Assembly (NCBI GenBank): GCA_023659985.1
Contig: JAGXOH010000001.1
Location: 1-52,238 of the forward strand
Direction: 5' to 3'
DNA from: Candidatus Falkowbacteria bacterium LH_S3
GTDB taxonomy: Bacteria > Patescibacteriota > Patescibacteriia > Patescibacteriales > JAGXOH01
DNA: 52,238 bases
The translations under genes were made by a program, and so were the position numbers. Positions 28,220-47,479 of the stretch are shown piece after piece (within the stretch, counting starts at the first letter, position 1; each line of letters starts with the position of its first letter). The notes under the pieces are model-generated. The model saw only the letters and a program-made list of their open reading frames with translations, did no database searches and was not told the origin of the DNA.

Positions 28220-28222
28220 AAT

Positions 28223-29765: not shown

Positions 29766-30053
29766 TTAAAATCTAATACTAAAATCGAGATAACCGACAA
29801 TCTTATCACTAAATTCATAATCAATACTGGTAACCGAAGCGGTCTGCGAACCTTGTCTGCACCATTTTATCATTTTCTTTAATTGTTCTTCTTCTCCTTC
29901 TGCCTCTATATACACAGAACCGTCTTTTTGATTTTTAGCCCAGCCAACAACATTCAACTCTTCAGCTTTTTGCTGAGCTGACTGCCTATAAAACACTCCT
30001 TGAACTTTTCCGTAAATTTGGATATTTACATGTTTCATATGTTTATATAACAA
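29766..30053 (-). CDS. acyP: Acylphosphatase
   Basis: IYGKVQGVFYRQSAQQKAEELNVVGWAKNQKDGSVYIEAEGEEEQL. Confidence 0.88.
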   Translation of the reverse strand: MLYKHMKHVNIQIYGKVQGVFYRQSAQQKAEELNVVGWAKNQKDGSVYIEAEGEEEQLKKMIKWCRQGSQTASVTSIDYEFSDKIVGYLDFSIRF

Positions 30054-30194
30054 ATTTTTTCTTTCTTATAAATATTCTATTAAGAATATTTTAAAAAATC
30101 AATCAATATTTGGTTTTGGCTATTAACAAAACATGGCTTAATATCATTTAATTAAGATGATCTACAATAATCATAAAAACAAAAGGAGGGGAAA

Positions 30195-30527
30195 ATGAAA
30201 ATTAAAATCCAATTACCGGAAAAAATTGAAGAAAGAATAAGTCATTTAGGATCATATTCCTACCTATTCTTGAAAGATGTGATAACAAACATAACCATGG
30301 AGCAAAATGGTGGAGATGTTAGTTGGAATCTTGTCAAAATTGAAGCTCTTAAAAAAATTGGAAGCAACTAGGGTGTGATCAAAGTATCAAAATCCAACAA
30401 AATCATTGAATGTGATCTACCTCCTAATGTTTCAGGACTGGTAGTAACCCTTTTAGAAACTGCTAAATCCAGATTGGAAAAGAAGATGTTAAGGAAATCA
30501 TTATTACTCGTTTTGAAATCTTTATAA
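30195..30527 (+). pseudogene. Hypothetical 110-codon frame interrupted by an in-frame TAG at 30369-30371 (the first 58 codons have a strong SD)
   Basis: AAAGGAGGGGAAAATG ribosome-binding site. The frame continues ...KKIGSN*GVIKVSKSNKIIECDLPPNVSGLVVTLLETAKSRLEKKML. Confidence 0.4.
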
Positions 30528-30584
30528 AAACATGAAAAATCAAATTATCAATCAAAGAGGCTTTGCTCCGATTGTGATAATAGG

Positions 30585-30617
30585 AATTCAGGACGTTTCC
30601 GGGAAACGTCCCGAATT
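30585..30617. repeat. Family-C hairpin element, copy 1
   Basis: AATTC-A-GGACGTTTCC-G-GGAAACGTCC-C-GAATT. Related copies lie at 32359-32381 and 47554-47584, and the A/C mismatch is conserved between copies 1 and 3. Confidence 0.8.
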
Positions 30618-30784
30618 TCCTCTTACGTCTCTAACGGGGCTAACGCAAAAGGATTCCCAAATTGTTATTGAAAATAAAAGCGAGAAGGCAAGATATGAAT
30701 CTCTTCAATTTGATAGTTTCGCAGCTGAAGAAAAATCGAGCAAAGTCTAAGCAAATGGATGTGTATAACTTTTTTACATTACGC

Positions 30785-30813
30785 TTGACAAACAATTTTA
30801 CATCGCTTACAAT
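30785..30813 (+). promoter_or_regulatory. Near-consensus sigma-70 promoter (TTGACA-17 nt-TACAAT) for the HNH/antitoxin/toxin operon
   Basis: TTGACA at 30785-30790, a 17-nt spacer, TACAAT at 30808-30813, lying 45 bp upstream of the 30859 ATG. Confidence 0.6.
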
Positions 30814-30858
30814 CAATTAAGTTAGGTTAAAATAATTATTAATTTTAATGTTAGAACT

Positions 30859-31068
30859 ATGGCTAAAAGAGAACGCTCACAAACAAAACTTCAAAAAGTT
30901 TTGGAACAAAAAGGATACTCTAAAGGCAAAGTACCGAAAGGCAAAGTTGCCCATCATGTTAAACCTGTTGCGGAAGATGGTAAGACAACTAAGAAAAATA
31001 TTAGAATTATTCCAAAAGAAAAACACAAAAAAATACACACTAACAGAAAAGAACGCAGTAGAATATAA
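30859..31068 (+). CDS. Mini HNH-motif protein (69 aa)
   Basis: VAHHVKPVAEDGKTTKKNIRIIPKEKHKKIH fits the HH...N...H(x3)H pattern. The overlapping frame 30848-31111 was rejected. Confidence 0.55.
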   Translation: MAKRERSQTKLQKVLEQKGYSKGKVPKGKVAHHVKPVAEDGKTTKKNIRIIPKEKHKKIHTNRKERSRI

Positions 31069-31070
31069 CT

Positions 31071-31847
31071 ATGCTTTCAAAATTTATTCAACAATTGCGA
31101 AAAAAGAATAATCTGACGCAGAATTTTTTGGCGTCCAAAATCGGCGTGTCTCGTCCGACCTATATGCAAATTGAACAAGGTAAACGGGACTTAACTATTA
31201 CTGAGGCAGAAAAACTGGCTTTTATTTTTGGTATTTCGTTTGAGGATTTTAGGCGTGCCAAAGATTCTTCCATTACTGCTGAAATTAAGAAGGAAAAAAT
31301 GAAATCAAAGGCAAAGAAACAAGAAATAAGAATCAGTGTGCCGCAAAAAAATCTTGAAAAATTTAAAGAAGTTTTGCTTTATATTTTATCAAAAGTTGGT
31401 GGCAAATCTAATGTTGGCGAAGCTGTGATTTATAAACTGTTTTACTTTATTGACTTTGATTTTTACGAAAAATTTGAGGAGCAATTAGTTGGCGCGACTT
31501 ACATTAAAAATCATTATGGTCCTACTCCTGTTGAATTTAAAACCGTTGTTGACGATATGATCCAAGGTGGTGAAGTTGTAAAAGTTAAAGAAAAATATTT
31601 TAATTATCCGCAAAGAAGATATTTAGCGGTCAGAAGGCCAAATCTTGATGTTTTATCCGGTCGCGAAATAGAACATATTGATGATGTTTTGGCGCGGCTT
31701 TCTGACAAAAACGCTAAAGAGATGGAAAATTATTCCCACGAGGATATTCCTTGGAAAACGGCGGAAGATGGCAAACCACTTTCTTATGAGAGTGTTTTTT
31801 ATCGTGACGAACATTACTCTGTAAGAAACTATGAAGACAGATTATAG
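31071..31847 (+). CDS. HTH(XRE)-Panacea (DUF4065/SocA-like) antitoxin
   Basis: N-terminal LTQNFLASKIGVSRPTYMQIEQGKRDLT. C-terminal KFKEVLLYILSKVGG...IYKLFYFIDFDFYEKFEEQLVGATYIKNHYGPTP is the typical Panacea core. Confidence 0.8.
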   Translation: MLSKFIQQLRKKNNLTQNFLASKIGVSRPTYMQIEQGKRDLTITEAEKLAFIFGISFEDFRRAKDSSITAEIKKEKMKSKAKKQEIRISVPQKNLEKFKEVLLYILSKVGGKSNVGEAVIYKLFYFIDFDFYEKFEEQLVGATYIKNHYGPTPVEFKTVVDDMIQGGEVVKVKEKYFNYPQRRYLAVRRPNLDVLSGREIEHIDDVLARLSDKNAKEMENYSHEDIPWKTAEDGKPLSYESVFYRDEHYSVRNYEDRL

Positions 31848-32172
31848 TGAAATGCCGGAGTTTTCCAAAGAATTTAACCGGTTTTCAAAAAAATATAAAT
31901 CATTGTCAGACGACTTGGAAGAGTTTAAACGCGTTGTTGATGTCGCGCCAATGGGAAATAGCAAGCATTTTAATGTCATTACGCGGAATGAACAATGTGC
32001 TGTTGTCAAAGCACGTTTGTTTTGTCGTTATTTAAAAGGATCGTCACTCCGAATTATTTACGCTTTTCATTATCAAAGTTATAAAATTGATTTTATTGAG
32101 ATATATTTTAAAGGTAAGAAAGAAAATGAAAATCGTGAAAGAATTCAAGCTTATTTGAAAAATTTTTCTTAA
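31831..32172 (+). CDS. RelE/ParE-superfamily-like toxin
   Basis: Overlaps the antitoxin stop. Contains KKYKSLSDDLEEF...VVKARLFCRYLKGSSLRIIYAF...IDFIEIYFKGKKENE, a RelE-like beta-core pattern. Confidence 0.6.
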   Translation: MKTDYSEMPEFSKEFNRFSKKYKSLSDDLEEFKRVVDVAPMGNSKHFNVITRNEQCAVVKARLFCRYLKGSSLRIIYAFHYQSYKIDFIEIYFKGKKENENRERIQAYLKNFS

Positions 32173-32186
32173 TTCAGCCACACTTA

Positions 32187-32281
32187 CCATCCATTTTGAT
32201 TTGTGGCGCAAATCAGTTGCTTGCTTGCGAAACCCTAAAGCAGAATAAATCTGCTATGGAGTAAGCGGATAAGGTGGATGG
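32187..32281 (+). ncRNA. Candidate structured RNA/DNA element (three-way junction); strand uncertain
   Basis: P1 CCATCCA/TGGATGG (32187-93 / 32275-81). P2 TGATTTG-TGGCG-CAAATCA (32197-215). P3 GCTTGC/GTAAGC (32223-28 / 32261-66). P4 AGCAGA-ATAAA-TCTGCT (32239-55). Confidence 0.3.
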
Positions 32282-32358
32282 GCGTTAAAAAATTGAAAGA
32301 GAATTGTATTTTAATTAACTCAATTAACTCAACCCGCCCGAGTTAATCAATAGAAACT

Positions 32359-32381
32359 GGGACGTTTCCCGGAGACGTCCC
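32359..32381. repeat. Family-C hairpin element, copy 2
   Basis: GGGACGTTTCC-C-GGAGACGTCCC followed by GGTCTTCGTTTCTTT. Confidence 0.8.
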
Positions 32382-32669
32382 GGTCTTCGTTTCTTTGCAG
32401 GAAGATTTTGTTTTTATTTCTCTATAGCTTTTACTAAAATATCTTTAAGTTTCGGAAATATGCTTTTTTTAAAGTTTTTTAATGTTTTTGACACATTGCT
32501 TCCTAAAAGCTTCTCTATTCCAAAACCTGTCTCTTTAGATAGACTTCTGTTTATGTGAGAGAAAGTTAAGTCTTGTACAATACAAAATGAGCTTCAAATG
32601 AAATCCATTTCTAACACAAAATGAGCCTGAATTAAGGTCTATTGTGTAATAAAGTGTGAGTCGTCATAA

Positions 32670-33026
32670 TTGAAGTATATGACAATACAAATGGACGACT
32701 CACACATTGTAAGTATTACACAAATTAAAGAATTTTTAAAGCTCAATAACAGTATTCAGTTTAAATCTGTTTCCAAGAAAGAAAGGAATCAGTGGCTGGA
32801 ACAGGTTATAATTCGGCTAAGATATTTTAAGCTAAGAAAGAAAGACAAAACCCTTGTAAAAAAATACATAATGCGAATAACTGGATTATCTGACTCTCAA
32901 TTAACTAGACTAATTGCCAGAAAAAAGAAGTTTGGTAAAATCTGGTTTAAATCAACCAGAAGACATTGTTTTCCAAAAAAATATACCCCAAAAGATGTAG
33001 CTCGCTTAATTGAAAAGAACAATTGA
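32670..33026 (+). pseudogene. N-terminal fragment of a transposase/integrase (HTH region only)
   Basis: ..HIVSITQIKEFLKLNN..FKSVSKKERNQWLEQVI..ITGLSDSQLTRLIARKKKFG..RRHCFPKKYTPKDV, with no catalytic domain following. A paralogous 43-aa fragment lies at 41226-41357. Confidence 0.55.
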
Positions 33027-33074
33027 TAAAAAGCTTGATAATCTTTACAAGGTCTATCAGAATAAAAATAAAAC

Positions 33075-33166
33075 ATTAAAAGTCGATATTAAAAAAGAAG
33101 ATTTCGGTCAGATCTTCAAAACTAACTTAAACCCTATTTCAGTTAGATAGTTAAATTGCTTGACAC
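33075..33166. repeat. ~92-bp repeat shared with 17429-17520 (transposase-tail remnant ending in TTGACAC)
   Basis: ATTAAAAGTCGATATTAAAAA(A)GAAGATTTCGGTCAGAT(T/C)TTCAAA..ACTAACTTAAAC(T/C)CTATTTCAGT(C/T)AGATAGTTAAAT, aligned by eye at roughly 90 percent identity. Confidence 0.8.
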
Positions 33167-33194
33167 AAGTATGGACTTTCTATTTTCTTTCTAT

Positions 33195-33209
33195 TATACT
33201 ATAAGTATA
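33195..33209. promoter_or_regulatory. Perfect palindrome TATACT-ATA-AGTATA 29 bp upstream of the LexA-fusion ATG; candidate operator
   Basis: Read directly. It shares the 13-mer ATACTATAAGTAT with the dprA-upstream palindrome. Confidence 0.45.
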
Positions 33210-33237
33210 AAATTAATAAAAAGTAAAGTCAAATATT

Positions 33238-36200
33238 ATGTTAACAAAAAGACAAAAACAAGTTTTAGACTTTATATCCTCGTATCATAAGAAAAAAGGA
33301 TATTCCCCCTCTTTGGAAGAAATACGCAAAAAATTTAAACTTGCTTCTGTTTCAACTGCCCATTTTCATGTAAAAAAATTGCAAGATTTGGGATTTATAG
33401 GAAAGCAAGACAACAGACCGAGATCAATTGATGTTTATGAAAGTGAAAAAATGGTTAATATTCCATTGCTTGGTTTAATTGCGGCCGGGCAACCTATTGA
33501 ACCAATACAAAGCCAAAACAGGGAAACAATTGCCGTTCCAAAAAGCAAAATATCTCACAGTGGTGAATTTTATGTTTTAAAAGTAGTTGGTGACAGTATG
33601 ATTGATGAAAATATAAATGACGGTGATTTGGTTTTGGTCAAACAACAAGATACTGCTGAAAATGGACAAAAAGTAGTCGCCCTTGTAGATAACTACGAAG
33701 CTACCTTAAAAAAATTTTATAAGGAAAAAAATTATGTAAGATTGCAACCAGCAAATAAAACAATTGAACCGATTATTATAAAGAGGGATAAAGAGCTAAC
33801 AATACAAGGTATTGTTATTGATGTAATAAGAAATGAGGAAGAAATACAAGCAGAAAAACTTTTGGAAAATAAAGAAATAAAAAGGAATAAAACGCTTCCT
33901 TTGAATAAAATTATTTTGGGAGATGCTGTTGAGGAATTAAAAAAACTGCCAAATGAAAGTTGTGATGTAATTATTATTGATCCTCCTTACAATATCGGAA
34001 AGGATTTCAATAATAATTTAGATAAACGAGAATTAAAAGAATACGTAATTTGGTGCAAAGAATGGATAAATGAATCAATTCGTGTAATGAAGCCAACTGG
34101 CACGATGTTTATTTATGGATTTAGTGAAATACTTGCTTATCTTTCCGTAGAAATTCCAATCAATAAACGCTGGCTGATTTGGCATTACACAAACAAAAAT
34201 GTTGCCTCATTAAATTTTTGGCAAAGAAGCCATGAAGCAATAATCTGTGCTTGGAAAGATAAACCTGTTTTTAATAAAGATGAAGTCAGGGAGCCATACA
34301 CCGAAGGATTTTTAAATGGAGCAGCCGGAAAAGTTAGGAAAGGAACAGCTGGAAGATTTAGCAGTAATGGGAAAGAAACTGTTTACAATGCACATGCGGA
34401 CGGGGCATTACCCCGCGATGTTATAAAAATCCCAGCTTTAGCTGGTGGAGCTGGTATGAATGAAAGATGGTTTATATGCAAAACTTGTAAAAATCAAGTT
34501 TTTGAACCAAGAGAATTAAAAAATCATACTGATCATGAAATAATTAAACACCCCACGCAAAAACCTCTTAAATTATCGCGAAAATTAGTAATGTCCGCTA
34601 CTCCCAAAAAAGACGGGGTTGTATTGGTACCCTTTGTTGGTACGGGCTCTGAATGTGTAGCGGCAAAAGAATTAGGGCAATCTTACATCGGCTTTGAAAT
34701 AAATCCCGATTATATTAAACTTGCCAAAAAATATTTGGAAAATCAACTTGTAAGCAAATCAACAAAAGAAAACGAATATATTTTTTCGAGTGAATATGTA
34801 AGTGAAGATCAAATCAAAGAGCTAACCTCTCGCTTGATTGAATTTAGAGAAAACAATTTATCGCGATACGCACTTGATATAAAAGATACGATTTATAGAA
34901 AAGAAATTTTAGATTCTGCAATTTTACAAAATGTATTTCTTTATATTGTTAAACAGAACGCGATAGAGGTAACAAATCAAAATGTCCAAGAAATTTTAGA
35001 GCAATTGCAGATTGATGGTGTAGGACTAGCTACGAGAGAAAAACAGGAGCTAGAAAAGATTTTGAATGTCTATAATTTAGAGGAGACAAAAGAAGACATT
35101 TTAGGATTTATTTATCAAAGTATTCGTCCACAAACTGATCGAAAAGAAGCAGGTCAATATTATACGCCGAACAAGGTTGTTGATTTTATTATTGAAAATA
35201 CCGGCATTGATATAGAAAAAGACAAAAATCTAACAATACTTGATCCGGCTTGTGGCTCTGGCCAATTTCTCTTGCGTGCCTATGACAAACTTTTAGCGCA
35301 ATATAAAAAACTTAGTACGTCAGATACAGAGGCTCATAAAAAAATTATAGAAAAACACCTTTACGGCATGGACATTGACCCCATTGCTTGCGCACTAACA
35401 AAGGCGAATCTTTACTTACGCAATCCAGATATCAAAGAGTTAAACTTTAACATTCATCAAGTAGATTTCCTCAAAAAGGATTATAATTTGATTGAACCTG
35501 ATCCTTTCCATAAAATCTATAATCAAATTGATTTTGTAATTGGTAATCCACCATGGGGAGCAAAACTTTCAAAGGAACAAAAGAGATATTTCGAAAAATA
35601 CTACAAGATTGGTAAGGTTGGTCTCAACACCTTTACACTATTTATTGAAAGAGCTTTAGATTTTCTGGAAAATAAGGGAAAGTTAGGATTTCTCATCCCT
35701 GAAGCCTACCTGAAAATCAAGGTTCATCAGCATTCTAGACTTCAGCTACTTCAAAATGGAAACATTCAAATGTTGGCTACAGGTGGGGAGATATTTAAAA
35801 AAGTATATGCTCCTTCACTTATCCTAATTTTTGAGAAAAATGAAAAAGATAAAAAAGATAATGATGTAATTATTAAAGAGAATGTATTCAACGGACACAT
35901 TAAAGAAACCAAGCTCGCTCAATCTTTATTTCAATCAACAGCAGATAATATTTTCAATATTAATTTTTCCGATGATACTTCGCAGATTCTTCAATACATT
36001 GATTCACAGGATAATAAATTTCTGAAAGACAATACTCTATTTGTTCTTGGAATAGTAACTGGAAATAATAAAAAATATCTTGTAAACAAACCTCTTACTA
36101 AAGAGCACAAGCCAATTATTGTCGGGAAAGATTTGAAAAAATACAAAATAAATTTTAGTGGTAATTACTTTGTTTACGATAAAGAAGAGCTTCAACAGGT

Positions 36201-36627
36201 TGCCCCAAAGGAATACTATGAAATACCAGAGAAATTGATTTATAAATTTATTGGAAAAAACTTGATTTTTGCATATGACAACGAACATCGGTTTTTTTTG
36301 AATAATACAAATGCGATAGAGCCCAAAATCCTCGGATTAGACATCAAGTATATTTTAGGAATACTTAACTCAAAGCTAATCCAATTTTATTATTCCAAAA
36401 TGTTTTTTACTATCCGTGTTTTGCGTGGTAACTTGGAAAGACTACCTATACTCAACGCTAGTAAAGAGAAGCAAAAAAGAATCATCGATCTTGTCAATGC
36501 AATAGAAAAAGATAATGGCAGTGAGTATGAAAATTTAGTTAGAAAGATTGATGAGGAAATTTTCAATCTTTACAAAATAGGGTCAGAGTGGAAAAATTAT
36601 ATTGAAGCAGAATTATCGAGACGATAA
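33238..36627 (+). CDS. LexA (wHTH + S24 peptidase) fused to a beta-class N4/N6 DNA methyltransferase and a gamma-class Eco57I/TaqI-like N6-adenine methyltransferase with TaqI_C-like specificity domain
   Basis: Residues 1-200 are LexA: PLLGLIAAGQPI (Ala83-Gly84), GDSM (Ser120), ATLKKF (Lys158). Residues ~225-500 carry IIIDPPYNIG, HPTQKPLKL and VPFVGTGSE. Residues ~635-1129 carry GQYYTP, LDPACGSGQF, VIGNPPWG and LGIVTGNNKKYL. There is no stop codon anywhere in the frame. Confidence 0.85.
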   Translation: MLTKRQKQVLDFISSYHKKKGYSPSLEEIRKKFKLASVSTAHFHVKKLQDLGFIGKQDNRPRSIDVYESEKMVNIPLLGLIAAGQPIEPIQSQNRETIAVPKSKISHSGEFYVLKVVGDSMIDENINDGDLVLVKQQDTAENGQKVVALVDNYEATLKKFYKEKNYVRLQPANKTIEPIIIKRDKELTIQGIVIDVIRNEEEIQAEKLLENKEIKRNKTLPLNKIILGDAVEELKKLPNESCDVIIIDPPYNIGKDFNNNLDKRELKEYVIWCKEWINESIRVMKPTGTMFIYGFSEILAYLSVEIPINKRWLIWHYTNKNVASLNFWQRSHEAIICAWKDKPVFNKDEVREPYTEGFLNGAAGKVRKGTAGRFSSNGKETVYNAHADGALPRDVIKIPALAGGAGMNERWFICKTCKNQVFEPRELKNHTDHEIIKHPTQKPLKLSRKLVMSATPKKDGVVLVPFVGTGSECVAAKELGQSYIGFEINPDYIKLAKKYLENQLVSKSTKENEYIFSSEYVSEDQIKELTSRLIEFRENNLSRYALDIKDTIYRKEILDSAILQNVFLYIVKQNAIEVTNQNVQEILEQLQIDGVGLATREKQELEKILNVYNLEETKEDILGFIYQSIRPQTDRKEAGQYYTPNKVVDFIIENTGIDIEKDKNLTILDPACGSGQFLLRAYDKLLAQYKKLSTSDTEAHKKIIEKHLYGMDIDPIACALTKANLYLRNPDIKELNFNIHQVDFLKKDYNLIEPDPFHKIYNQIDFVIGNPPWGAKLSKEQKRYFEKYYKIGKVGLNTFTLFIERALDFLENKGKLGFLIPEAYLKIKVHQHSRLQLLQNGNIQMLATGGEIFKKVYAPSLILIFEKNEKDKKDNDVIIKENVFNGHIKETKLAQSLFQSTADNIFNINFSDDTSQILQYIDSQDNKFLKDNTLFVLGIVTGNNKKYLVNKPLTKEHKPIIVGKDLKKYKINFSGNYFVYDKEELQQVAPKEYYEIPEKLIYKFIGKNLIFAYDNEHRFFLNNTNAIEPKILGLDIKYILGILNSKLIQFYYSKMFFTIRVLRGNLERLPILNASKEKQKRIIDLVNAIEKDNGSEYENLVRKIDEEIFNLYKIGSEWKNYIEAELSRR

Positions 36628-36801
36628 TTTTTTAATCTTCTCAAAAACTTCATTAGAAGTTATTTCATATTTTTTAAAATCAGCTATATTTTCTGTCTTG
36701 ATGTGCATTTGTCCTTCGTAACCTTGACCCTGCAACAGTACAGTTATTGCGCGCTTCGTTTTATATGTGTATACTAAGGTTATAAAGAGTTATAAAAAAT
36801 T

Positions 36802-38004
36802 ATGAATCAGGAATTACACCCAGAAACGATTAAATATATCAAGGCGGCGGATTTAAAACATCGCAAAAAATTGGGTCAGTATTTTACGTCACGCACACTC
36901 AGAGAAATTCTGTTCAGCAAACTACCTAAATTGAAAAAGCCTAAAATTCTCGATCCGGCAATTGGTACCGGGGAATTTTTAATAACTGCTAAAAAATATT
37001 ATCCGAATAGTCGAATTTATGGATGGGAAATTGACCCTGCTCTAGTAAATATCTCAAAACAAGTTGCCCCATATGCCCATATTGAGTGCGTTGATTCTCT
37101 TAAAAAACATGAGTATGGCAAATTTGATTTTATAGTAGGAAATCCTCCTTACTTCGAGTTCAAACCAGATCCAGAGACACGCACAAAATATTCAGAAATT
37201 CTCAACGGAAGAGTAAATATATATGGAATTTTCATCTACCAGGCAATACAACTTTTGAAAGATGGCGGGTACCTCGCCTTTGTAATCCCTCCCTCTATGA
37301 ATAATGGTGCTTATTTTTCGAAATTACGGAACTTTATAGTTGCTAATTGTAATATTGAATTTCTCTCAATTCAGCAAGTCCCTACTCTTTTTAAAGATGC
37401 TCTTCAGAGTGTTATGTTGCTTGTGCTTAAAAAAGCTCCAAATGTTGGAAGTTATATATTCAAAAAGAACGGTATTCTCATATTTAGTGAAGAAAGAGAA
37501 TATCTTGAAAATGTGTTTAAAAATAGCGTAACGCTCAGTGATCTTGGATACAAAGTTCGAACGGGAAAATTAGTATGGAACCAGAACAAAGATCGCTTAA
37601 CAAACACCCACAAAGGAAATACCGCCCTTATCTGGAGTCACAATATCACAAAAGGGAATATTGAATTAGGAAATCATGGGAGTAAATCACAATTTGTAAA
37701 GACAAATTTTTATGAGCAAGGACCAGTAATTGTAACGAATAGAATCATTGGTCAACCTCATAAAGGAAGTTTAAGAGCCGCTGTTGTTCCAAAAAATATG
37801 AAATTTGTAGCCGAAAATCATATCAATGTAATTTATCCTCCTGATAAGCAAACCCGCATGTGTTTTACCAATAAAAAAGTTTCTATTGAAAGCTTGGTTG
37901 AACAACTAAACTCTCCGACGAACTCCAAGATTTTGTTCCGAATAACTGGCAACACACAAATATCTAAAAACGAACTTGAAAAACTATTTCCCATCAAGGT
38001 ATAG
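36802..38004 (+). CDS. Gamma-class N6-adenine DNA methyltransferase (TaqI/Eco57I-like)
   Basis: LGQYFTSRTL, ILDPAIGTGEFL, GWEIDP, FIVGNPPYFEF, and a C-terminal TRD-like half. Confidence 0.85.
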   Translation: MNQELHPETIKYIKAADLKHRKKLGQYFTSRTLREILFSKLPKLKKPKILDPAIGTGEFLITAKKYYPNSRIYGWEIDPALVNISKQVAPYAHIECVDSLKKHEYGKFDFIVGNPPYFEFKPDPETRTKYSEILNGRVNIYGIFIYQAIQLLKDGGYLAFVIPPSMNNGAYFSKLRNFIVANCNIEFLSIQQVPTLFKDALQSVMLLVLKKAPNVGSYIFKKNGILIFSEEREYLENVFKNSVTLSDLGYKVRTGKLVWNQNKDRLTNTHKGNTALIWSHNITKGNIELGNHGSKSQFVKTNFYEQGPVIVTNRIIGQPHKGSLRAAVVPKNMKFVAENHINVIYPPDKQTRMCFTNKKVSIESLVEQLNSPTNSKILFRITGNTQISKNELEKLFPIKV

Positions 38005-38011
38005 CTCCAAC

Positions 38012-38938
38012 TCAAAGCAGAAATACTCTCTCGCAAAACGCGCTTAAACCAATACCATTTGTAAAACTTGCTTGTAGTCTAACAAGGGGGGTTTTTTCTG
38101 CCAAAATATGGTAGCTTTTATTTTTTATTTTTTCAGCAACTAACTCCCCCTCAATTAAACCCCTCATTGTTTCATTCCAATATAACCAGGGGGTATCTTT
38201 CTCCACGAGAACACTTAGTAGTGGTTTAGTTGATTTAATATCAAATATTTCTTCTAAGAATACTAATTTTTTCTTTTTTGGTAAGGCATTAAACAATTTA
38301 ACGCTTTTGTCTACTGCTAATTCCTGCACGGAGGTTCCATATCTTTTACCGATCTTTTGTATGGCAGGAAAGCAATACTTTGCATTCTTAATTTCATCCT
38401 GACTTTTTGTTGATATCTTAGCTAATTCACCTCCAGCTTTAGAAAAATCTTGTCTAATGTTTGCCCACATCTCTTTTAATTCTTTATCAATATTCAAACC
38501 CAAGAATTGTTTTAATTTTTCATAACCAAAATTTTTCTGAGTTCCAAGTCCCTGTCTTGTTGATTTCAAAGATACCCCTATTACAAAACCGGACTCAAAA
38601 GTTAAATCTAGATCTGAAATTGTTTCTTCTTCTTGCCATCTTCGTCCGATCCAATTAATAGTTTTTATTTTTCCATGAGTAGGTATAACATTAGAGTTTA
38701 ATTTTTCTATTAGAGCCGGCATTAAAATGCTGACCCTTTTATATTGTTCTTCGGTACGTTTTTCGCTATTTGGAAAATTAGAAATTATACTTTCCAGTTC
38801 CTGTTTTATTTTTTCTAGCTTATCTTTTTTTAGTTTATAAACATCGCTCAAGCCTATGGCTACAAGAACTTCAAACAAATCGGCTTTTGAGCGACTAGAC
38901 TTTCTCTTACTATCTTCAACTGTAATAATTTTGTACAT
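38012..38938 (-). CDS. Putative type II restriction endonuclease
   Basis: Convergent with the methyltransferase across an 8-bp gap. Candidate D-Xn-(S)xK element SDLDLTFESGFVIGVSLKS. No other family was recognised by eye. The start at M13 (38938) abuts the radC stop. Confidence 0.5.
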   Translation of the reverse strand: MYKIITVEDSKRKSSRSKADLFEVLVAIGLSDVYKLKKDKLEKIKQELESIISNFPNSEKRTEEQYKRVSILMPALIEKLNSNVIPTHGKIKTINWIGRRWQEEETISDLDLTFESGFVIGVSLKSTRQGLGTQKNFGYEKLKQFLGLNIDKELKEMWANIRQDFSKAGGELAKISTKSQDEIKNAKYCFPAIQKIGKRYGTSVQELAVDKSVKLFNALPKKKKLVFLEEIFDIKSTKPLLSVLVEKDTPWLYWNETMRGLIEGELVAEKIKNKSYHILAEKTPLVRLQASFTNGIGLSAFCERVFLL

Positions 38939-38942
38939 AATA

Positions 38943-39632
38943 TTAAAATAAATCTGGATTTTGATTCTGGACACTTAAGAAGTTGCTTCTGGTGATAATG
39001 ATATGATCAATAACCTTAATTCCCAAAACATTACCGCTATCTATGAGTTTTTTGGTAATCGCTAAATCTTCTTCTGATGGTTCTGGATCGCCTGACGGAT
39101 GATTGTGTACAAATATTACTGAGGCGGCTTTGCTCTTGATTGCTTCAAAAAAGACCTCTCTTGGATGAACCAGGCTGGAGTCGAGGATCCCGATTGAAAT
39201 TTCGTTTACTGGGCAATTACGAGAATTTAAAGCAATCACATAAAAATGTTCTTTGCTGTAATCTTTAACCCTACCTCGCATAAACTTGAAAACCCTTTCC
39301 GGATTTGTAAGTTCTTTGCTCTTATAAGAAGGCGTTTGAGTGGAAATTCTCCGGCTGATTTCAAAAACGGCTTTTATTTGTGCTACCTTTGTCTGCCCAA
39401 TCCCTTTAATAGATAATAATTCCTCAATGTTTGCTTCTGATAATTTTTGCAAACTTCCAAAATGGCTTAATAATTTTTGAGATGTTACGGTAACCGATTC
39501 GCCGGCAATGCCACGCCCTAAAATAAGTTGTAATAACTCTTGAGTCGAAAGTGCTTGTTCGCCAAATTCAGTCAATCGCTCTCGGGGGCGCTCTTCTTTT
39601 GGTAAATCATGAAGGGTGAATGATTTTGACAT
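38943..39632 (-). CDS. radC: RadC-like JAB/MPN domain protein
   Basis: HhH-like N-terminus (LSIKGIGQTKVAQI) and the JAMM motif HNHPSGDPEPSEED. Confidence 0.9.
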   Translation of the reverse strand: MSKSFTLHDLPKEERPRERLTEFGEQALSTQELLQLILGRGIAGESVTVTSQKLLSHFGSLQKLSEANIEELLSIKGIGQTKVAQIKAVFEISRRISTQTPSYKSKELTNPERVFKFMRGRVKDYSKEHFYVIALNSRNCPVNEISIGILDSSLVHPREVFFEAIKSKAASVIFVHNHPSGDPEPSEEDLAITKKLIDSGNVLGIKVIDHIIITRSNFLSVQNQNPDLF

Positions 39633-39634
39633 AG

Positions 39635-39850
39635 TTAGTTTAGATTCATTAGCTTATCTAAAGGTATTTTCAAAGCCCTAGCAATTTTCTCAATATTTTC
39701 TATCGTGATATTTTTTTCTGCACGCTCAATCATTCCAACATAAGTGCGATGAACACCTGCTCGTGTTGCAAGCTGTTCCTGAGAAAGTCCTTGCTTTATT
39801 CGTTCTTCTCGGACTTTCTTGCCAAATTTGATAAGGATTTCTCTTTTCAT
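39635..39850 (-). CDS. XRE-family HTH regulator, controller (C) protein-like
   Basis: GLSQEQLATRAGVHRTYVGMIERAEKNITIENIEKIARAL. It is 71 aa and the first gene of the XRE-radC-REase operon. Confidence 0.8.
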   Translation of the reverse strand: MKREILIKFGKKVREERIKQGLSQEQLATRAGVHRTYVGMIERAEKNITIENIEKIARALKIPLDKLMNLN

Positions 39851-39876
39851 ATTTGATAATTTTAGTATATCTTCTT

Positions 39877-39907
39877 GCTAATTGTAGTGCTACATACTAT
39901 AGTTAGC
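39877..39907. promoter_or_regulatory. Candidate C-box/operator: nested inverted repeats GCTAATT..AGTTAGC and TGTAG..CTACA, with the TACTATAGTT core
   Basis: GCTAATTGTAGTGCTACATACTATAGTTAGC lies 27-57 bp upstream of the XRE ATG. A TATACT -10-like box lies at 39864-39869 on the minus strand. Confidence 0.4.
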
Positions 39908-39937
39908 ATATAGAATTAACAAATTTGGGGATTTTCT

Positions 39938-40178
39938 TTGTATCGCCCGCGTTGGGCGTGGCGGGACAAGTGCGACTAAATATGAATAATAAATTTCCGC
40001 CGAAAAAAAATCGTGCGAAGCCTAAGCAGGCGGGCCCATAGCAAAACCTATGGCTTGCTATGGGGCAAGCAAAAAGAATTTTTGTTTACCCCGTAGTCAA
40101 ATGCGAAACATTTGTACTTCAGGGGCCGCCTGCCGAAGTGAAGCCTCGCCGCCCTGCTCGTTCAGAGCCGAGTCCTGC
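39938..40178. ncRNA. GC-rich, helix-dense non-coding segment (candidate structured RNA or foreign insertion); strand unknown
   Basis: Hand counts give about 50 percent GC at 40021-40080 and about 68 percent at 40121-40180, against a ~30 percent background. Helices: CCCATAGCAA/TTGCTATGGG (40035-44 / 40055-64), GCAGGCGG/CCGCCTGC (40026-33 / 40126-33), CAAATG-CGAAA-CATTTG (40098-114), CCCC/GGGG (40089-92 / 40122-25). Confidence 0.35.
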
Positions 40179-40198
40179 AAAAAAGTTTTCTTTTCCTT

Positions 40199-40327
40199 TT
40201 AGAAGAAAAAATCGGGCGCGCGCAAATTAAAAAATGCGAAGAAAACTTTTTTCCAATTTACAAAATATTCCCATGTTTTAATTGAACTTTTTAATGTTGC
40301 TATTAAATTTGCAAAATCTTTTTCCAT
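40199..40327 (-). pseudogene. N-terminal remnant (~30 aa) of a DpnII/MboI-family restriction endonuclease
   Basis: MEKDFANLIATLKSSIKTWEYFVNWKKVF resembles the conserved DpnII-family N-terminus (..TW.YFVDF.KV..). The frame then runs into unrelated GC-rich sequence and stops. Confidence 0.5.
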
Positions 40328-40331
40328 ACTT

Positions 40332-41165
40332 TTAATAATTAGTTACCAATACTTCTGTAATTTTCCCTCGCTTAGAAGCATCGGAGTTAATGGCGCGACC
40401 CGCCTGTACTTTTGTAATATTAACGCCTGTAATTTCAGAGTATATTTTATTAATAAATGAAGTATCGGAGTTTGAGAGTATAACGAAACAACCACATCTA
40501 TGTAGTTGTGCAAATGTATCCCTCAATTCTATCTGTTCTTTATCCAAAAAGGCTTCACTTGTGTAAGAAGTAAATGAAGCTGTTTTACTTACTGGATAAT
40601 ATGGCGGATCAAAATAAACAAAATCTCCTTTTTTAGCTTTTTTCAAAATTTCTCTGTAATCCTGTTTTTTTATCTCAACATTCTGTAATGATATTGATGC
40701 TTTTCTAAGATTAACTTCATCACAAATAAGAGGGTTTGTATATTTTCCATACGGCACATTAAAACCGCCTTTGTTATTTACACGGTACATACCATTAAAA
40801 CATGTTCTATTCAAATAAAACGAGATACAGTGTCTATATCAGAAAGGCTTTCCGGATTTTGCGCGCGAATTTCTAAGAAATATTCTTTATCTAATTTATA
40901 TTTTTTTAAGAGATTTTATAAGTTCATCAACATCATTTTTTATGACATTATACGTAATAACAAGTTCCCCATTTAGATCAGAGAATTCTGCTTTTTCAGG
41001 AAGTAAATCAAAGAAGAGAACAGCACCACCAACAAATGGCTCAAAATATTTGTTTGATTTTGAATCAAAATTAGCAGGAGGATATAGATTCAAAAGTCGA
41101 AATTGTTTGAGGACTTGTCTTTTTCCGCCAACCCATTTTACAAACGGCTTCGGAGTATATTCCAA
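40332..41165 (-). pseudogene. Dam-type (D12 class) N6-adenine DNA methyltransferase, disrupted by at least two frameshifts
   Basis: The N-terminal part KPFVKWVGGKRQ..FEPFVGGAVLFF, the middle part DKEYFLEIRAQNPESLSDIDTVSRFI, and the C-terminal part LNRTCFNGMYRVN...VYFDPPYYP are in three different frames. Confidence 0.75.
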
Positions 41166-41225
41166 TCCTAAGATGTCCCCTCTCTCGTCTTCTACAACAA
41201 TGATATTTTTTAAATCTCAATTTAA

Positions 41226-41357
41226 CTAAGTATTACTAATAAAATGGTATTTCTCTGAACGAGAAACTACTTTAATTTCAACTTTCCTTGTCCCTTGTAA
41301 AAATTCCTTGATATCGTTTATACTATCAATGTGTTTGGTATTCATAATGATTTTCAT
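41226..41357 (-). pseudogene. 43-aa N-terminal transposase fragment, paralogous to 32670-33026
   Basis: MKIIMNTKHIDSINDIKEFLQGTRKVEIKVVSRSEKYHFISNT* aligns with ..HIVSITQIKEFLKLNNSIQFKSVSKKERNQWLEQV. Confidence 0.5.
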
Positions 41358-41445
41358 AACACCATTATTGTAGAATACCTTTCACTTATGCAAATGGCCT
41401 CTTTAAGGGGTCATTTTGCATTAGAAACCGAGGGCTAGTTTAGGG

Positions 41446-41604
41446 TCATCTTGCATTGGAAAAGACTTTCGGTTTTTCTTCAAGAATCTTTGTGATATCA
41501 TCAAATAAATTATCTTTATTTGCGATATGGAAAAGCCTCCGAGCATAAATTGTACTTATGCCGAATGTATCTGCTATTTTTAAAATTGTTTGACTTTGTG
41601 TCAT
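41446..41604 (-). CDS. Possible 52-aa HTH-like ORF (below the track cutoff)
   Basis: MTQSQTILKIADTFGISTIYARRLFHIANK... It overlaps the subterminal repeats of the IS remnant, so it may be spurious. Confidence 0.25.
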   Translation of the reverse strand: MTQSQTILKIADTFGISTIYARRLFHIANKDNLFDDITKILEEKPKVFSNAR

Positions 41605-41608
41605 AAAT

Positions 41609-41701
41609 TTATTTTAAAAGTGTATCAATATTAACCCCTAACACTTTGGCGACCTTTCGCAAGGTTTTTAGTATAGGATTCTTGTTTTCCCCTGATTCCA
41701 T
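41609..41701 (-). pseudogene. Truncated XRE-family HTH (C-terminal half only) abutting the tRNA-Ser 3' end
   Basis: ..IIKMESGENKNPILKTLRKVAKVLGVNIDTLLK* corresponds to helices 3-5 of an XRE domain. The N-terminal half is missing at the tRNA boundary. Confidence 0.5.
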
Positions 41702-41718
41702 TTTAATAATTTCAAACT

Positions 41719-41810
41719 TGGCGGAGAGGGTGGGATTTGAACCCACGGTCCCACTGAAACGAGACGCCGCATTTCGAGTGCGGTGCATTCAGCCACTCTG
41801 CCACCTCTCC
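41719..41810 (-). tRNA. tRNA-Ser (anticodon CGA), CCA encoded
   Basis: The reverse complement GGAGAGGTGGCAGAGTGGCTGAATGCACCGCA-CTCGAAA-TGCGG, a long variable arm, and GGGTTCAAATCCCACCCTCTCCGCCA. Confidence 0.93.
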
Positions 41811-41856
41811 TGTAATTTTGAAAAAAATTGTACTATTTTAAATTCATGATTAATTA

Positions 41857-42609
41857 TCAGCTTTCTTTCATTTTCTCCACTTCCTCTTGAGTTAAATACC
41901 TCCATTCTCCTTCTTTAAGATCTCCCAATCTTAATCCATCTATACCAATTCGCACCAGATTTGTTACTGTTAAATTTAGAGCCTCAAACATTTTTCTTAT
42001 CTGCCTTTTCTTGCCTTGCCCCAGTATTATTTCAAATTTTTTATTTGCCAATTGTTTTACATTTTCAGCCCAAACAATCGGCATATCTTCCTCTATATTA
42101 ACACCTTGACTAAACCTGTTGATCACCTCATCCGGATCAAATTTATTTTCTTTAATAATTACTTCATAAACTTTTCTATGTCCAAAGGAAGGATGCATTA
42201 ACTTATTCCCAAGATCACCATCATTGGTAAGTAAAATCAATCCCCGACTGCCCTTATCCAACCTGCCTACAATAAAAACTCTGTTCTCTTTTAGTACTTG
42301 TCTGTTCTTTTTATCATTTTGCAACAGACTTAACACATTTTTTTCATCCTTAAACTCCTTGGTAGTACAAGTATACCCCCGAGGCTTGTTTAGCTTGATA
42401 TAAACATTATTTTTTTTAGGATCAATTTTTTTACCATTAACCCTGACATCATCCTTCTTGTCCACCTTTATGCCTGGACCGGCAGAGACGCCGTTAACCA
42501 AAACCGTATGTTCAATTCCTTGAGCGCTTTTTTTAATAATTTCCTCTGCCCTCCTTCTGGGACAATAACCAGAATCAGCAATAAATTTTTGTAAAGGGAT
42601 TTTGGTCAT
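41857..42609 (-). CDS. rRNA pseudouridine synthase (RsuA/RluB family) with S4 domain
   Basis: LQKFIADSGYCPRRRAEEII (S4 domain) and VGRLDKGSRGLILLTNDG (catalytic Asp). Confidence 0.88.
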   Translation of the reverse strand: MTKIPLQKFIADSGYCPRRRAEEIIKKSAQGIEHTVLVNGVSAGPGIKVDKKDDVRVNGKKIDPKKNNVYIKLNKPRGYTCTTKEFKDEKNVLSLLQNDKKNRQVLKENRVFIVGRLDKGSRGLILLTNDGDLGNKLMHPSFGHRKVYEVIIKENKFDPDEVINRFSQGVNIEEDMPIVWAENVKQLANKKFEIILGQGKKRQIRKMFEALNLTVTNLVRIGIDGLRLGDLKEGEWRYLTQEEVEKMKES

Positions 42610-42677
42610 AATATTATAAATTACTTATTGTTGTTAATAAAAATTTAAAATCACAACAATAGTTTCTATAATAACTC

Positions 42678-44156
42678 CTATCTATTCAATTTTTGATTTT
42701 TATTTCTGATGTGAATTAAACTCATCACAGCCACTAACACCCAAAACTGAACAGCCAGATCATTTTTAAAGTAAGGCACATCCACCAGTCCATGTATTAT
42801 AATAGTTATTAAAGCTCCTATCAAGCCACAAACTACAGCCCGATCTCGGCTCGGCAAACTCTTAAGACCGTAATAAAAATACTTAACAAACATCCACCCA
42901 AAAAGCAACACTCCTAAAATTCCCAATTCAATCCAAAAATTCAAAATAATATTATGAGGATACAAATAGACTTCTATAGGTTGCCAGTATTTAGCTTTAT
43001 ATTCATCCCCTCCCCATACTATCTTTCTCCTAAAATCCGAATCATTATCTTTATTAAAAAACAAACCTTCAGGCCGATAAGAGGCTACTGTTTCTTGGTA
43101 ATGAGCTACCCCAACCCCAGTCAGCCATCTATAGTCGTCTCTTAACATCTTCCAAGAACTGGCCCACTGCAACTGGCGTATTTCTCCTGACAGATCACTT
43201 AAAGTGGCTTTTTCCACCACATATTTTCTAACCGGAGTATAAAAATAGATAAAAGTTACGGTTAATAATAATACTAAAATAAAAACAAGTCTTACTCTCT
43301 TACTATACAAAAAACCAAAAACTATTAAAGCGACAATCACTCCTACAACCGCCCCCTCAGACCGAGCCCATCCTATTGCCAGCCAAGAAAATATTGTTGC
43401 AAAAAAACTAACAACTATAATCATCTTCTCCTGTTTAGTAATCTTTTCTATTTTATCTTTGTAAACCCTGTAAACTTTTTTTAACTTTTGTATTAACAAT
43501 CCCAGAGCCACCAAAGAAATAGGCGCAACAAACAATCCCACGGCGTTGGGATAATTATAAAAAGAAGTAATTCGATTAACCTCTGCTTCCCCCAAATATT
43601 CAACCGGAATCAGCCAACCAGTAAATTTTTGGAGTATAGCGAACACAGAAACAACCAAGGCAGATACACTCAAAGCCGTAGCCACTCTGTAAATATCTTG
43701 CCTGCGCTGAAAAAGATTTACTATTAAGATAAACACTAATAAGGGTTCAAAAAAATATGCCCGCCACAAGCCTAAAGCGTCCAAATCAAAACCGGCAATA
43801 GCTACGGCAATAAAAGAAATTATCAGCAAAGCTATCATTTCTAAAGCAAAAGGATAGCGATTTCTTTTTCTGCTATTGGCCAAATAATCCCTTATTTTAT
43901 AATCACCTTTTAAAAACTTAGTAAAATTAGTCTTAGTTAAAAACCACACACCGAAAGAAATCAATATCATCCCTTCTAAAACAGTGGAAGGCAATCCCAA
44001 TACCTCAAATCTGAATAAATAAGCCGGAAGAGAAGCAATCAATAGCAAAACAGCCCAATCAAGACGATATAGGGATAACAAAAGATAAAAAAATAAAAAG
44101 AGAAAGATGGCAATGTTCATAAAGATAATTAAAGACAACTCAAAGCTAAAAACCAA
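42678..44156 (-). CDS. O-antigen ligase/polymerase-like (Wzy_C) membrane protein
   Basis: More than ten TM helices and the characteristic loop WARSEGAVVGVIVALIVF. Confidence 0.7.
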   Translation of the reverse strand: MVFSFELSLIIFMNIAIFLFLFFYLLLSLYRLDWAVLLLIASLPAYLFRFEVLGLPSTVLEGMILISFGVWFLTKTNFTKFLKGDYKIRDYLANSRKRNRYPFALEMIALLIISFIAVAIAGFDLDALGLWRAYFFEPLLVFILIVNLFQRRQDIYRVATALSVSALVVSVFAILQKFTGWLIPVEYLGEAEVNRITSFYNYPNAVGLFVAPISLVALGLLIQKLKKVYRVYKDKIEKITKQEKMIIVVSFFATIFSWLAIGWARSEGAVVGVIVALIVFGFLYSKRVRLVFILVLLLTVTFIYFYTPVRKYVVEKATLSDLSGEIRQLQWASSWKMLRDDYRWLTGVGVAHYQETVASYRPEGLFFNKDNDSDFRRKIVWGGDEYKAKYWQPIEVYLYPHNIILNFWIELGILGVLLFGWMFVKYFYYGLKSLPSRDRAVVCGLIGALITIIIHGLVDVPYFKNDLAVQFWVLVAVMSLIHIRNKNQKLNR

Positions 44157-46882: not shown

Positions 46883-47479
46883 ATGAAAATTAACGAAAAA
46901 AAGGAGGAAAAAATGGAAAGAGAAAGAAAGCAGAAGTTGATAGTTCGTTGGTCCATTATGACAGGTAGTCTAATTGCTCTGTTTTGGGCAATTTGGTTCC
47001 TGATTGCTGGCGAAGTCCCAGCTGTCAGCAATATCAAGGTAACGGAAAATTGGACATATATCCTACCGTTTGGTATTTCACGCTGGTGGGATGTATTAGT
47101 CGGTCCGATTTTTTCGGCGATCATTATCTATTTTTTAACTAATGAAAAAATAGAGGAAAGTGAAGATCTAGATCTGGTCATCACACCGGTCATCGTGTGC
47201 GTCGCACTGGTCTCCACACTCGCCATACCGGGCGTCATAGCGGACGTCGCACTGGGGCTCACATTGGGGCTCACACTGATCGCCATGGTGATCGCCATAC
47301 TGAGCGTCGCACTGGAAGTCGGAATAGACATCGGATTAGCCATTTCACTAGGTGTTACACTAGTCTTCGGAATAATAATTTTCGGAATATTCTTTGGGCT
47401 GGTGTTTGGGTTGGTGTTTGGGCTAATTATTGCTCTTTGGAAACTATGTCATTTAGTTGTCCATTCCAGAATAATCTAG
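46883..47479 (+). CDS. Hypothetical membrane protein with an internally repetitive, GC-rich hydrophobic segment
   Basis: Charged N-terminus followed by TM helices. GTCGCACTGG occurs three times, at 47201, 47246 and 47306. AGGAGGAAAAAATG lies at the internal M11. Confidence 0.55.
   Translation: MKINEKKEEKMERERKQKLIVRWSIMTGSLIALFWAIWFLIAGEVPAVSNIKVTENWTYILPFGISRWWDVLVGPIFSAIIIYFLTNEKIEESEDLDLVITPVIVCVALVSTLAIPGVIADVALGLTLGLTLIAMVIAILSVALEVGIDIGLAISLGVTLVFGIIIFGIFFGLVFGLVFGLIIALWKLCHLVVHSRII

Follow-up and report, generated by a model that had tools for sequence, protein, structure and literature searches.

Tycheposons, which are linked to tRNA genes in Prochlorococcus, SCCmec, and the enterococcal cassette chromosomes with ccrAB are cassette or island systems that use a large serine recombinase. 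The C segment of phage P1 and the G segment of phage Mu are invertible and lie next to a serine invertase (Cin and Gin, respectively), and the yeast 2-micron plasmid has FLP. The controller (C) proteins of restriction-modification systems are accompanied by antisense RNAs from reverse promoters, and the pR/pL pair of coliphage 186 is a switch made of face-to-face promoters. Furuta, Abe and Kobayashi (2010; PMC2853133) described restriction-modification units with inverted repeats of 26–65 bp and 8-bp target duplications, as well as restriction-modification-plus-integrase units at tRNA genes, and such units are read as mobile forms of restriction-modification systems. Here we describe an element of the Patescibacteria (the candidate phyla radiation, CPR), bacteria with tiny genomes whose mobile elements are poorly characterised. 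The starting point is a GC-rich segment, positions 39938–40178, in a stretch of 52,238 nucleotides from Candidatus Falkowbacteria bacterium LH_S3 (contig JAGXOH010000001.1 of assembly GCA_023659985.1). This whole stretch is called the window below.

Our conclusion, to which we assign a probability of about 75%, is that positions 39993–40252 of the window, together with the XRE control region at 39875–39976, are what is left of a truncated arm, the XRE-proximal one, of an integrative element of the cassette type with a wide distribution in Patescibacteria. A preliminary description, made from the sequence of the window, had singled out 39938–40178 as a GC-rich island in an AT-rich background. 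This is indeed so: the segment has 51.9% GC (47, 53, 38 and 68% in its four 60-nt lines) against a mean of 33.1% for the whole window, which puts it about 4 standard deviations above the mean of 241-nt windows. The source assembly (803,827 bases in 116 contigs, 77.5% complete) has 33.9% GC. The coordinates given there do enclose GC-rich DNA, but the feature runs further, to 40252. That the segment is non-coding, structured, foreign to its AT-rich surroundings and part of a mobile element is supported by what follows. Rather than a self-contained, inserted RNA gene of ~240 nt, which was one of the possibilities suggested, it is the inner two-thirds of a DNA repeat module of ~330 nt.

The core of the segment has many relatives. 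A covariance model, R1, which describes a four-way junction over 152 positions, was built on the plus strand from the copies of 11 of them. It matches the window at 40154–40257 on the plus strand with 94 bits (E ~1e-18), over model positions 14–117. BLAST identity between the core in the window and its relatives is 83–87%, and for 40126–40252 in relatives of the same order it ranges over 72–87%; there the copies are typically paired, with opposite orientations and a spacing of 4–7 kb. Copies from different elements are ~70–92% identical to each other. The near-invariant sequence TTTTCTTTTCCTTTTARAAGAAAAAAT is present exactly at 40186–40212, as is its continuation CGGGCGCGCGCAAAT. Within the order, R1 matches occur in 37 of 316 genomes and in 29 of 96 genera, at 1–9 per genome, and the window's own family, represented by eight other genomes, has none. 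This patchy distribution indicates horizontal spread. A 27-mer made up of the last bases of the 5' strand of stem P3 and the first part of the loop (see below) has exact matches in more than 119 genome contigs. Their labels are mostly Patescibacteria/CPR, with Giovannonibacteria, Kaiserbacteria, Wolfebacteria, Falkowbacteria, Magasanikbacteria and Sungiibacteriota among them; a few matches are in bins labelled as other phyla, possibly mis-binned contigs.

We use L-numbers for loci in relatives, G-numbers for genomes and C-numbers for contigs, G000 being the genome of the window. Partial copies are present elsewhere in G000: 40126–40236 recurs at C105:6664–6773 (77% identity), beside a frame-shifted XRE gene and a methylase gene, and 39990–40035 recurs at C82:322–369. 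At the first of these sites (C105:6440–6700), the XRE gene lies by an N4/N6 methylase, has a frame shift around a C10 homopolymer and abuts an AT-decayed arm fragment, which differs from the window copy mostly by G-to-A and C-to-T changes. Another relic, a full-length but AT-drifted copy of the four-way junction of the L064 subtype, lies at C30:5133–5305 on the minus strand (46 bits). Runs of N, which are masked or unresolved positions in the repeat, interrupt arms in the records of two relatives, at ~7337–7351 of L027, in the junction loop, and at ~2145–2189 of L029, just past the four-way junction.

A complete arm is ~330 nt long, has ~50% GC and consists, from its inner to its outer end, of a terminator-like hairpin, a hairpin named H1, a four-way junction with helices P1–P4, and a tail. 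The inner edge is CCGCCGAAAAAAATCGGGCGAAGCCCGA, whose opposite strand reads TCGGGCTTCGCCCGA and then seven T, and a terminator scan scored it as an inward-facing terminator at the same place in L062, L024 and L012. The stem of H1 is GCAGGCGGGC/GCCCGCCTGC in L030, GCAAAAGGGC/GCCCTTTTGC in L024 and L016, and GGGCGTGGCGG/CCGCCACGCCC in L023; between these predicted stems the variation is compensatory. The tip of H1 is one of at least two alternative modules. In the junction, P1 is the closing helix, P2 a side hairpin on the 5' side, P3 a long stem, and P4 a variable side hairpin on the 3' side. The tail reads ...GGGATTTTG..AAAGTTCGAAT...CCGCCA (also written GTTCGAA...CCGCCA), and by its sequence is a mimic of the 3' end of a tRNA, from the T-loop to the CCA.

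The pairing of this structure is strongly conserved. When 38 distinct best-strand copies are aligned to R1, 92.5% of the cells in its base pairs are paired, compared to 76% after shuffling and 54–68% when the partners are slid by 1–3 columns. Both sides have changed in 29 of the 32 base pairs. In full-length copies this holds for six of the seven pairs of P1, and P2 shows covariation in all five of its pairs. The loop is almost invariant and AT-rich, and the stems vary with compensation. In a consensus of 63 sequences the P3/loop 27-mer is the most conserved block, these 63 having been selected by the same 27-mer.

In ten elements the arms occur as inverted pairs, which are 95–100% identical over their main stretch and 91–93% identical in some outer parts. 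In a repeat search, the stretches shared by the paired arms have a length of 150–380 nt and a spacing of 2.4–7 kb. The orientation of a pair is always '- ... +', both in the sample from the order and in all five pairs of a CPR-wide sample. The cargo between the arms is 2.6–7 kb long and mostly consists of genes for restriction-modification or other defence. It includes NgoPII accompanied by Dcm and SMODS genes, a Type III restriction-modification system, a Type IIG enzyme similar to Eco57I, NOV_C, large unknown proteins, QueC-like and thymidylate-synthase-like (ThyA-like) genes, a radical SAM gene, and glutamate dehydrogenase with an aminotransferase. A Pfam scan of the open reading frames (ORFs) of the cargo shows it to be unrelated between elements.

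The genes beside the arms also follow strict rules. The order in a complete element is tRNA gene, large serine recombinase gene, first arm, XRE gene, variable cargo, and second arm in the inverse orientation. An XRE gene lies 200–400 nt inside the arm and divergent from it at 11 arms of the order sample and at 12 of 51 arms CPR-wide, and never, in either sample, does an XRE gene on the inner side have the orientation of the arm. A large serine recombinase gene, with the Pfam domains Resolvase, Recombinase and Zn_ribbon_recom, lies outside the arm and in its orientation at 5 arms of the order sample and at 9 of 60 CPR-wide, the sole exception being L070, where it is on the inner side in the opposite orientation. 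Genes for tRNAs often face the tail, with the 3' end towards it, as in L062 and L063. At L062, which comes from another family of the order, the succession is rluB, tRNA-Ser, arm and XRE, as in the window; L061 is also located at tRNA-Ser. Two observations hint indirectly at a programmed inversion: the orientation of the cargo relative to the recombinase gene differs between L028 and the group of L023, L061 and L012, and contigs break at arms. Contigs with arms at both ends are compatible with flip-flop isomers.

These orientation rules (paired arms, XRE divergent on the inner side, recombinase in sense on the outer side with a single exception) are hard to reconcile with a reading of the segment as a dispersed palindromic repeat, of the repetitive extragenic palindromic (REP) or miniature inverted-repeat transposable element (MITE) type, for which the association with cassettes and recombinases would be incidental and the pairing would be kept by hairpin processes acting on DNA. 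We regard such a repeat as very unlikely, even though arms also occur singly (in G251 and G149, for instance), are often found at contig ends, and seem to be composites of smaller modules that can be found by themselves. H1-type hairpins, GGGC-AAAAAGGAAGGGGGTTGGGGGGAAGGAATTTTT-GCCC, that have no adjacent four-way-junction match occur in G000 at C39:33652, C67:3076, C21:~11282, C56:~3040 and C82:~358, where they adjoin other GC-rich hairpins. The conservation pattern is also wrong for such a repeat, since in the arms the centre of the palindrome shows the highest conservation and the stems compensate, which is the opposite of what is found in terminal repeats bound by a transposase. Furthermore, the Pfam scan of cargo ORFs revealed neither a transposase nor a RAYT gene, and no target-site duplication was noticed at the arm boundaries displayed, no systematic search having been made.

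The recombinase gene of these cassettes is bracketed by an inverted repeat of its own, of 147 nt, whose two copies ('a' and 'a-prime') are 96–99% identical (L061:489–635 and 2060–2206; L064:405–551 and 2021–2167; L023:1–51 and 1535–1585). One copy includes the last ~20 codons of the recombinase gene and the other contains a pseudo-copy of those codons. Both begin directly after a core that resembles the end of a tRNA, CCGCCA or CCACCA. In L061, ATTTTCAC... comes after the end of tRNA-Ser (...GGTTCGAATCCCTCCCTCTCCGCCA) and again after the arm tail (...GTTCGAATATCAATCAAAAAACACCGCCA); L064 has the same pattern with a tRNA-Val-like end. The junction of tRNA end with 'a' and that of arm tail with 'a-prime' are identical to the right of CCGCCA (CCACCA in L064). 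On the basis of this mimicry and of the shared junctions, we hypothesise that the tail and 'a' would form the attachment site for the recombinase on the element. Once excised, the circle would consist of recombinase and cargo as unique segments with long inverted repeats between the two, and the near-identical arms would allow the cargo to be inverted or exchanged. At L063:6002–6054 a perfect palindrome of 25 nt links the arm tail to the 3' end of a tRNA-Leu; it resembles a recombinase module of which just the two ends remain, its recombinase gene being precisely absent. The recombinase genes have a promoter-like site of their own at the ATG and no Shine-Dalgarno sequence. The arm need not then be their leader, which weakens the idea, also considered, that it is an obligatory 5' leader of the recombinase mRNA.

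The copy in the window retains the 5' strand of P1, P2, P3, the loop, and H1 with a branched variant of its tip. At its inner end, the motif TTTCCGCCGAAAAAAAATCGTGCGAAGCCTAAG (40025 being its last position and 39993 its first, on the plus strand) is a degenerate copy of the family's CCGCCGAAAAAAATCGGGCGAAGCCCGA; its stem no longer pairs, and the copy of it at C82:322–369 is 79% identical. H1 occupies 40026–40133 (plus strand), with a stem at 40026–40037/40122–40133 and a branched 84-nt tip at 40038–40121 that is related to the tips of L016 and L015. The helices listed in the preliminary description are real. Its long-range pair is the stem of H1, 12 nt long with 92% complementarity, and its three small hairpins are carried by the tip: a perfect 10-bp hairpin (40035–40044/40055–40064), a GGGG/CCCC helix within an 18-nt pair (40058–40075/40079–40096), and CAAATG-CGAAA-CATTTG (40098–40114). 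The GAAGCCT repeats are likewise present, at 40017 and 40140. Next come the 5' strand of P1 (AGCCTCGCCGCC, 40142–40153, plus strand), recognised by eye against a MAFFT alignment of relatives and lacking its 3' partner, and hairpin P2 (CTGCTC-GTTCA-GAGCCG with one mismatch, 40154–40170, plus strand), which comes from the covariance-model match. P3 (40171–40252, plus strand) was found both by an inverted-repeat search and by the model, and pairs 40171–40196 with 40237–40252 around the loop TTTTAGAAGAAAAAATCGGGCGCGCGCAAATTAAAAAATG (40197–40236). The inverted duplication of 14 bp that had been noted next to the segment does exist, and is longer than claimed, at 25 nt (40176–40200/40231–40255, 84% complementary). 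It is not a scar of the junction, however, but stem P3 of the four-way junction, which is kept in all relatives.

Beyond P3 the arm is broken. P4, the 3' strand of P1 and the tail (model positions 118–152) are absent, and a pattern search of the window for the tRNA-mimic tail finds CCTCTCCGCCA only in tRNA-Ser itself. From 40253 onwards the DNA is the reverse complement of codons 25 to 1 of a DpnII-type endonuclease gene, the first 25 codons of which, at 40253–40327 on the minus strand, are joined at 40252/40253 to the outer end of the arm, where it is broken. The protein match here is weak: the 42-codon ORF 40199–40327 (minus strand) matches positions 2–26 of Pfam DpnII with E 2e-4 and 21 bits, under the 23-bit cut-off. 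An R1 search of 28000–43000 with filters off gives no second arm, there being no other match below E 0.3 except at the same site on the opposite strand, and tblastn finds no recombinase homologue in the 77.5%-complete assembly. The loss beyond P3, the fusion of the break to DpnII and the lack of a recombinase gene mark the segment as a decaying relic and not an active RNA gene; it is a truncated arm that is probably inactive. The preliminary description was right that the end of the segment coincides with the truncation of DpnII, but the junction is the broken outer end of the arm and not the start of an element. Nor is a clean insertion into DpnII supported. Because the arm is truncated as well, the junction has the appearance of two adjacent cassettes joined by a deletion or rearrangement.

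The surroundings of the arm are canonical for the family, with rluB, tRNA-Ser, arm and XRE in that succession and the arm pointing at the tRNA. In this locus the XRE, DpnII, D12 and helix-turn-helix (HTH) identities come from Pfam profile searches, and tRNA-Ser from ARAGORN and Rfam. The XRE-family HTH regulator, at 39635–39850 on the minus strand (HTH_3, E 7e-19), opens an operon of XRE, RadC and a 320-aa protein. It lies inside the arm and divergent from it. A promoter scan places a promoter-like site, TTGCTA-17-TATAGT, at 39875–39903 on the plus strand; this 'antisense promoter' points away from XRE and outward into the GC-rich stretch, so that the face-to-face layout of the family is present, the promoter in the XRE sense being weakly recognisable. 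Just upstream of the XRE promoter is a GC hairpin with a GGGACAAG block (39944–39976), listed by eye for 12 loci. From the comparison of the left and right arms of L023, this block is homologous to a conserved block of the relatives that lies inside the cassette and outside the inverted repeat. tRNA-Ser(CGA), at 41719–41810 on the minus strand, follows rluB and lies 1.46 kb from the arm in the expected orientation, with its 3' end facing the island, at the same rluB–tRNA-Ser site as in L062. It would be the chromosomal attachment site of the arm family in this lineage.

Between the arm and the tRNA are the remains of other genes, all on the minus strand. A frame-broken D12-class Dam methylase gene at 40332–41165 (Pfam MethyltransfD12 in two pieces, E 1e-35 and 3e-13) is the partner of the lost DpnII nuclease. 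An unassigned 52-aa ORF (41446–41604) lies in the same direction between the broken Dam gene and an XRE fragment. The latter, identified by tblastn at 41612–41718, is the C-terminal half of a second XRE gene and abuts the 3' end of tRNA-Ser. Its identity with the cassette XRE proteins of L024 and L062 is 55–64%, and it is closer to the XRE proteins of the cassette family than is the intact XRE at 39635–39850.

The XRE fragment is probably a remnant of an older cassette with Dam/DpnII cargo, and its position suggests that this cassette lost its arm and the N-terminus of its XRE by deletion at the attachment site. We therefore propose the following history as a reconstruction. An older cassette, with XRE and then Dam and DpnII, would have sat at tRNA-Ser, DpnII probably being its last gene. 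A second cassette, with the arm, XRE, RadC, the putative 320-aa nuclease and a converging methylase, would have come to lie beyond the older one. A deletion at the cassette junction would then have taken the end of DpnII, the outer part of the arm and anything between them, and the segment would mark the junction of the two cassettes. Reading the segment as an arm explains three oddities of the window, namely the island of high GC, the loss of the DpnII gene and the presence of a stray piece of XRE next to tRNA-Ser. In a relative of the same genus (G001), tRNA-Ser is on a contig of 2.4 kb, too short for a comparison with an empty site. At L023:5881–7500, a methylase beside the cassette of G028 shares 77% identity with the window's LexA-methylase fusion (33832–34737) in the first methylase domain of the latter. 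The G028 methylase pairs with a TaqI-type nuclease, and the window and G028 loci share their neighbourhood beyond the arm.

Several points weigh against this interpretation. In the CPR-wide sample, searched by tblastn with few seeds, neither recombinase nor XRE turned up within reach on 40 of the 60 outer sides or on 37 of the 51 inner ones, and with so many blank sides the full architecture is documented for a minority of arms only. The proposed recombinational role of the tail derives from sequence mimicry and shared junctions, and the two-cassette history is a reconstruction. At an assembly completeness of 77.5%, a recombinase gene could lie elsewhere in the genome. Finally, in a metagenome-assembled genome of 116 contigs, a mis-join at a repeat is possible, here at 40252/40253.

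It is also necessary to ask whether the arm works as RNA. Sites equivalent to the antisense promoter, often TTGACA-17-TAnnAT, overlap the XRE start and are face to face with the XRE promoter. Every one of the 12 loci has a site that scores 9 or more out of 12, and at six loci the score is 10 or more, a value reached by 4.8% of random windows. On the sense (plus) strand of the arm, G-U/U-G pairs outnumber A-C/C-A pairs by 55:21 overall and by 29:11 after clustering at 85%; the p value of ~0.006 is that of a naive binomial test on the clustered counts, for an alignment made with a model built on the same strand. The wobble bias and the conserved promoter suggest that the arm is transcribed, and the structured core would be transcribed outward from a conserved promoter facing that of XRE. 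A promoter inside the conserved loop was also considered and dropped, since by eye there were only weak 8/12 matches, on both strands. The terminator-like hairpin acts on the opposite strand, and the inverted pairing and the tail are features at the level of DNA; roles at the two levels are not exclusive. Intact arms may act as RNA, and it is possible, although we put this forward tentatively and as the less probable outcome, that the arm specifies a structured RNA of a new class, ~300 nt long and made up of H1 and the four-way junction with its invariant AU-rich loop, that is active in the life cycle of the cassette. Such an RNA could couple the XRE switch to the action of the recombinase or serve as a two-sided transcriptional insulator, and the cassettes of Patescibacteria would then be RNA-assisted serine-recombinase elements and not plain integrative islands.

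A functional RNA made from the window copy itself is less probable still. Here the promoter at 39875–39903 would drive an RNA of ~340 nt, containing H1 and a partial junction, that acts on the expression of XRE or the restriction genes, for example as an antisense or decoy RNA, and the nature of the arm as a DNA repeat would be secondary. The promoter aimed into the sense strand in 12 of 12 loci, the roughly 3:1 excess of G-U over A-C pairs on that strand, the strong covariation and the 52% GC region in a 33% GC genome all fit this, and 39938–40178 folds more stably than any of 200 dinucleotide shuffles (z -3.33 on the plus strand and -5.59 on the minus strand). However, the more negative z belongs to the minus strand, opposite to the one favoured by wobble pairs, alignment to a plus-strand model may inflate the G-U count, and the covariation comes from the intact relatives and not from the window copy. 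The H1 flank hairpin is degenerate, and without the 3' strand of P1 and without P4 the conserved fold of the family cannot form. We consider a functional RNA at this locus improbable, compared with the relic of an arm. The idea of a structured RNA in the preliminary description gains indirect support from covariation, wobble bias and the promoter aimed into the arm, but the segment is not an autonomous RNA gene. No Rfam family matches. With Rfam 15, only tRNAs pass the gathering threshold in the whole window; for an 801-nt stretch at permissive E-values the best matches are at chance level (E ≥ 0.5), and the full-length copies of five relatives give no match.

Lastly, the segment might be part of some protein-coding gene that came from a GC-rich donor. 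The statement that it has no ORF longer than ~20 codons is mechanically wrong, as plus-strand ORFs of 38, 50 and 56 codons span the region. These have no Pfam match and cross the covarying stems, substitutions in the relatives keep base pairs and not reading frames, with frequent insertions and deletions, and parts of the segment recur at several non-coding sites, always with hairpin symmetry. A coding origin is therefore scarcely credible. The only other region of the window with ~52% GC, 47040–47440, was ruled out as a comparable island because it is part of a membrane-protein gene: it encodes the repetitive Gly/Ala/Val/Ile-rich part of a putative membrane protein of 198 aa, which has no Pfam match.

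Our literature searches found no published description of the arm and cassette family in Patescibacteria, and this widespread family is apparently undescribed. It appears to be a common vehicle by which restriction-modification and other defence genes pass between distant lineages. The arm module is a marker for cassette boundaries, and for new defence cargo, in CPR metagenomes. The arms would account for the assembly breaks that occur at them, and the family offers a compact system of a recombinase and its site.

The closest described systems share parts of this organisation. Like the units of Furuta et al. (2010), the CPR cassettes are restriction-modification genes bounded by inverted repeats, with an integrase at a tRNA gene. 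Those repeats are imperfect and specific to the unit, whereas the CPR arms are ~250–480 bp long, 95–100% identical within an element and internally structured, with one conserved core across CPR lineages that carry unrelated cargo. The CPR tails, in contrast, mimic the 3' end of a tRNA, and the recombinase module has its own inverted repeat. The 8-bp target duplication of those units has no counterpart noticed at the CPR arm boundaries displayed, where it was not looked for systematically.

As in tycheposons, SCCmec and the enterococcal cassettes, a large serine recombinase stands beside swappable cargo at a fixed site, which in tycheposons is also a tRNA gene, and elements accrete in tandem and leave decayed remnants. 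To our knowledge, in none of these systems is the cargo flanked on both sides by arms that are long, structured and inverted, or by a tRNA-mimic tail, and we know of none in which the recombinase gene is bracketed by its own inverted repeat. The invertible segments of P1 and Mu and the 2-micron plasmid resemble the CPR elements in having two unique segments, long identical inverted repeats and a site-specific recombinase gene alongside. The CPR recombinase is of the large integrase type, however, and not a small invertase or a tyrosine enzyme. Compared with P1 and Mu, the cargo consists of defence genes and not of tail-fibre alleles, and inversion would be the inferred behaviour here. Finally, as in C-protein systems, a small XRE/C-type regulator comes first in a restriction operon and a convergent promoter overlaps its start, with the difference that the predicted antisense transcript of the CPR cassettes would enter a conserved structured module of ~300 nt.

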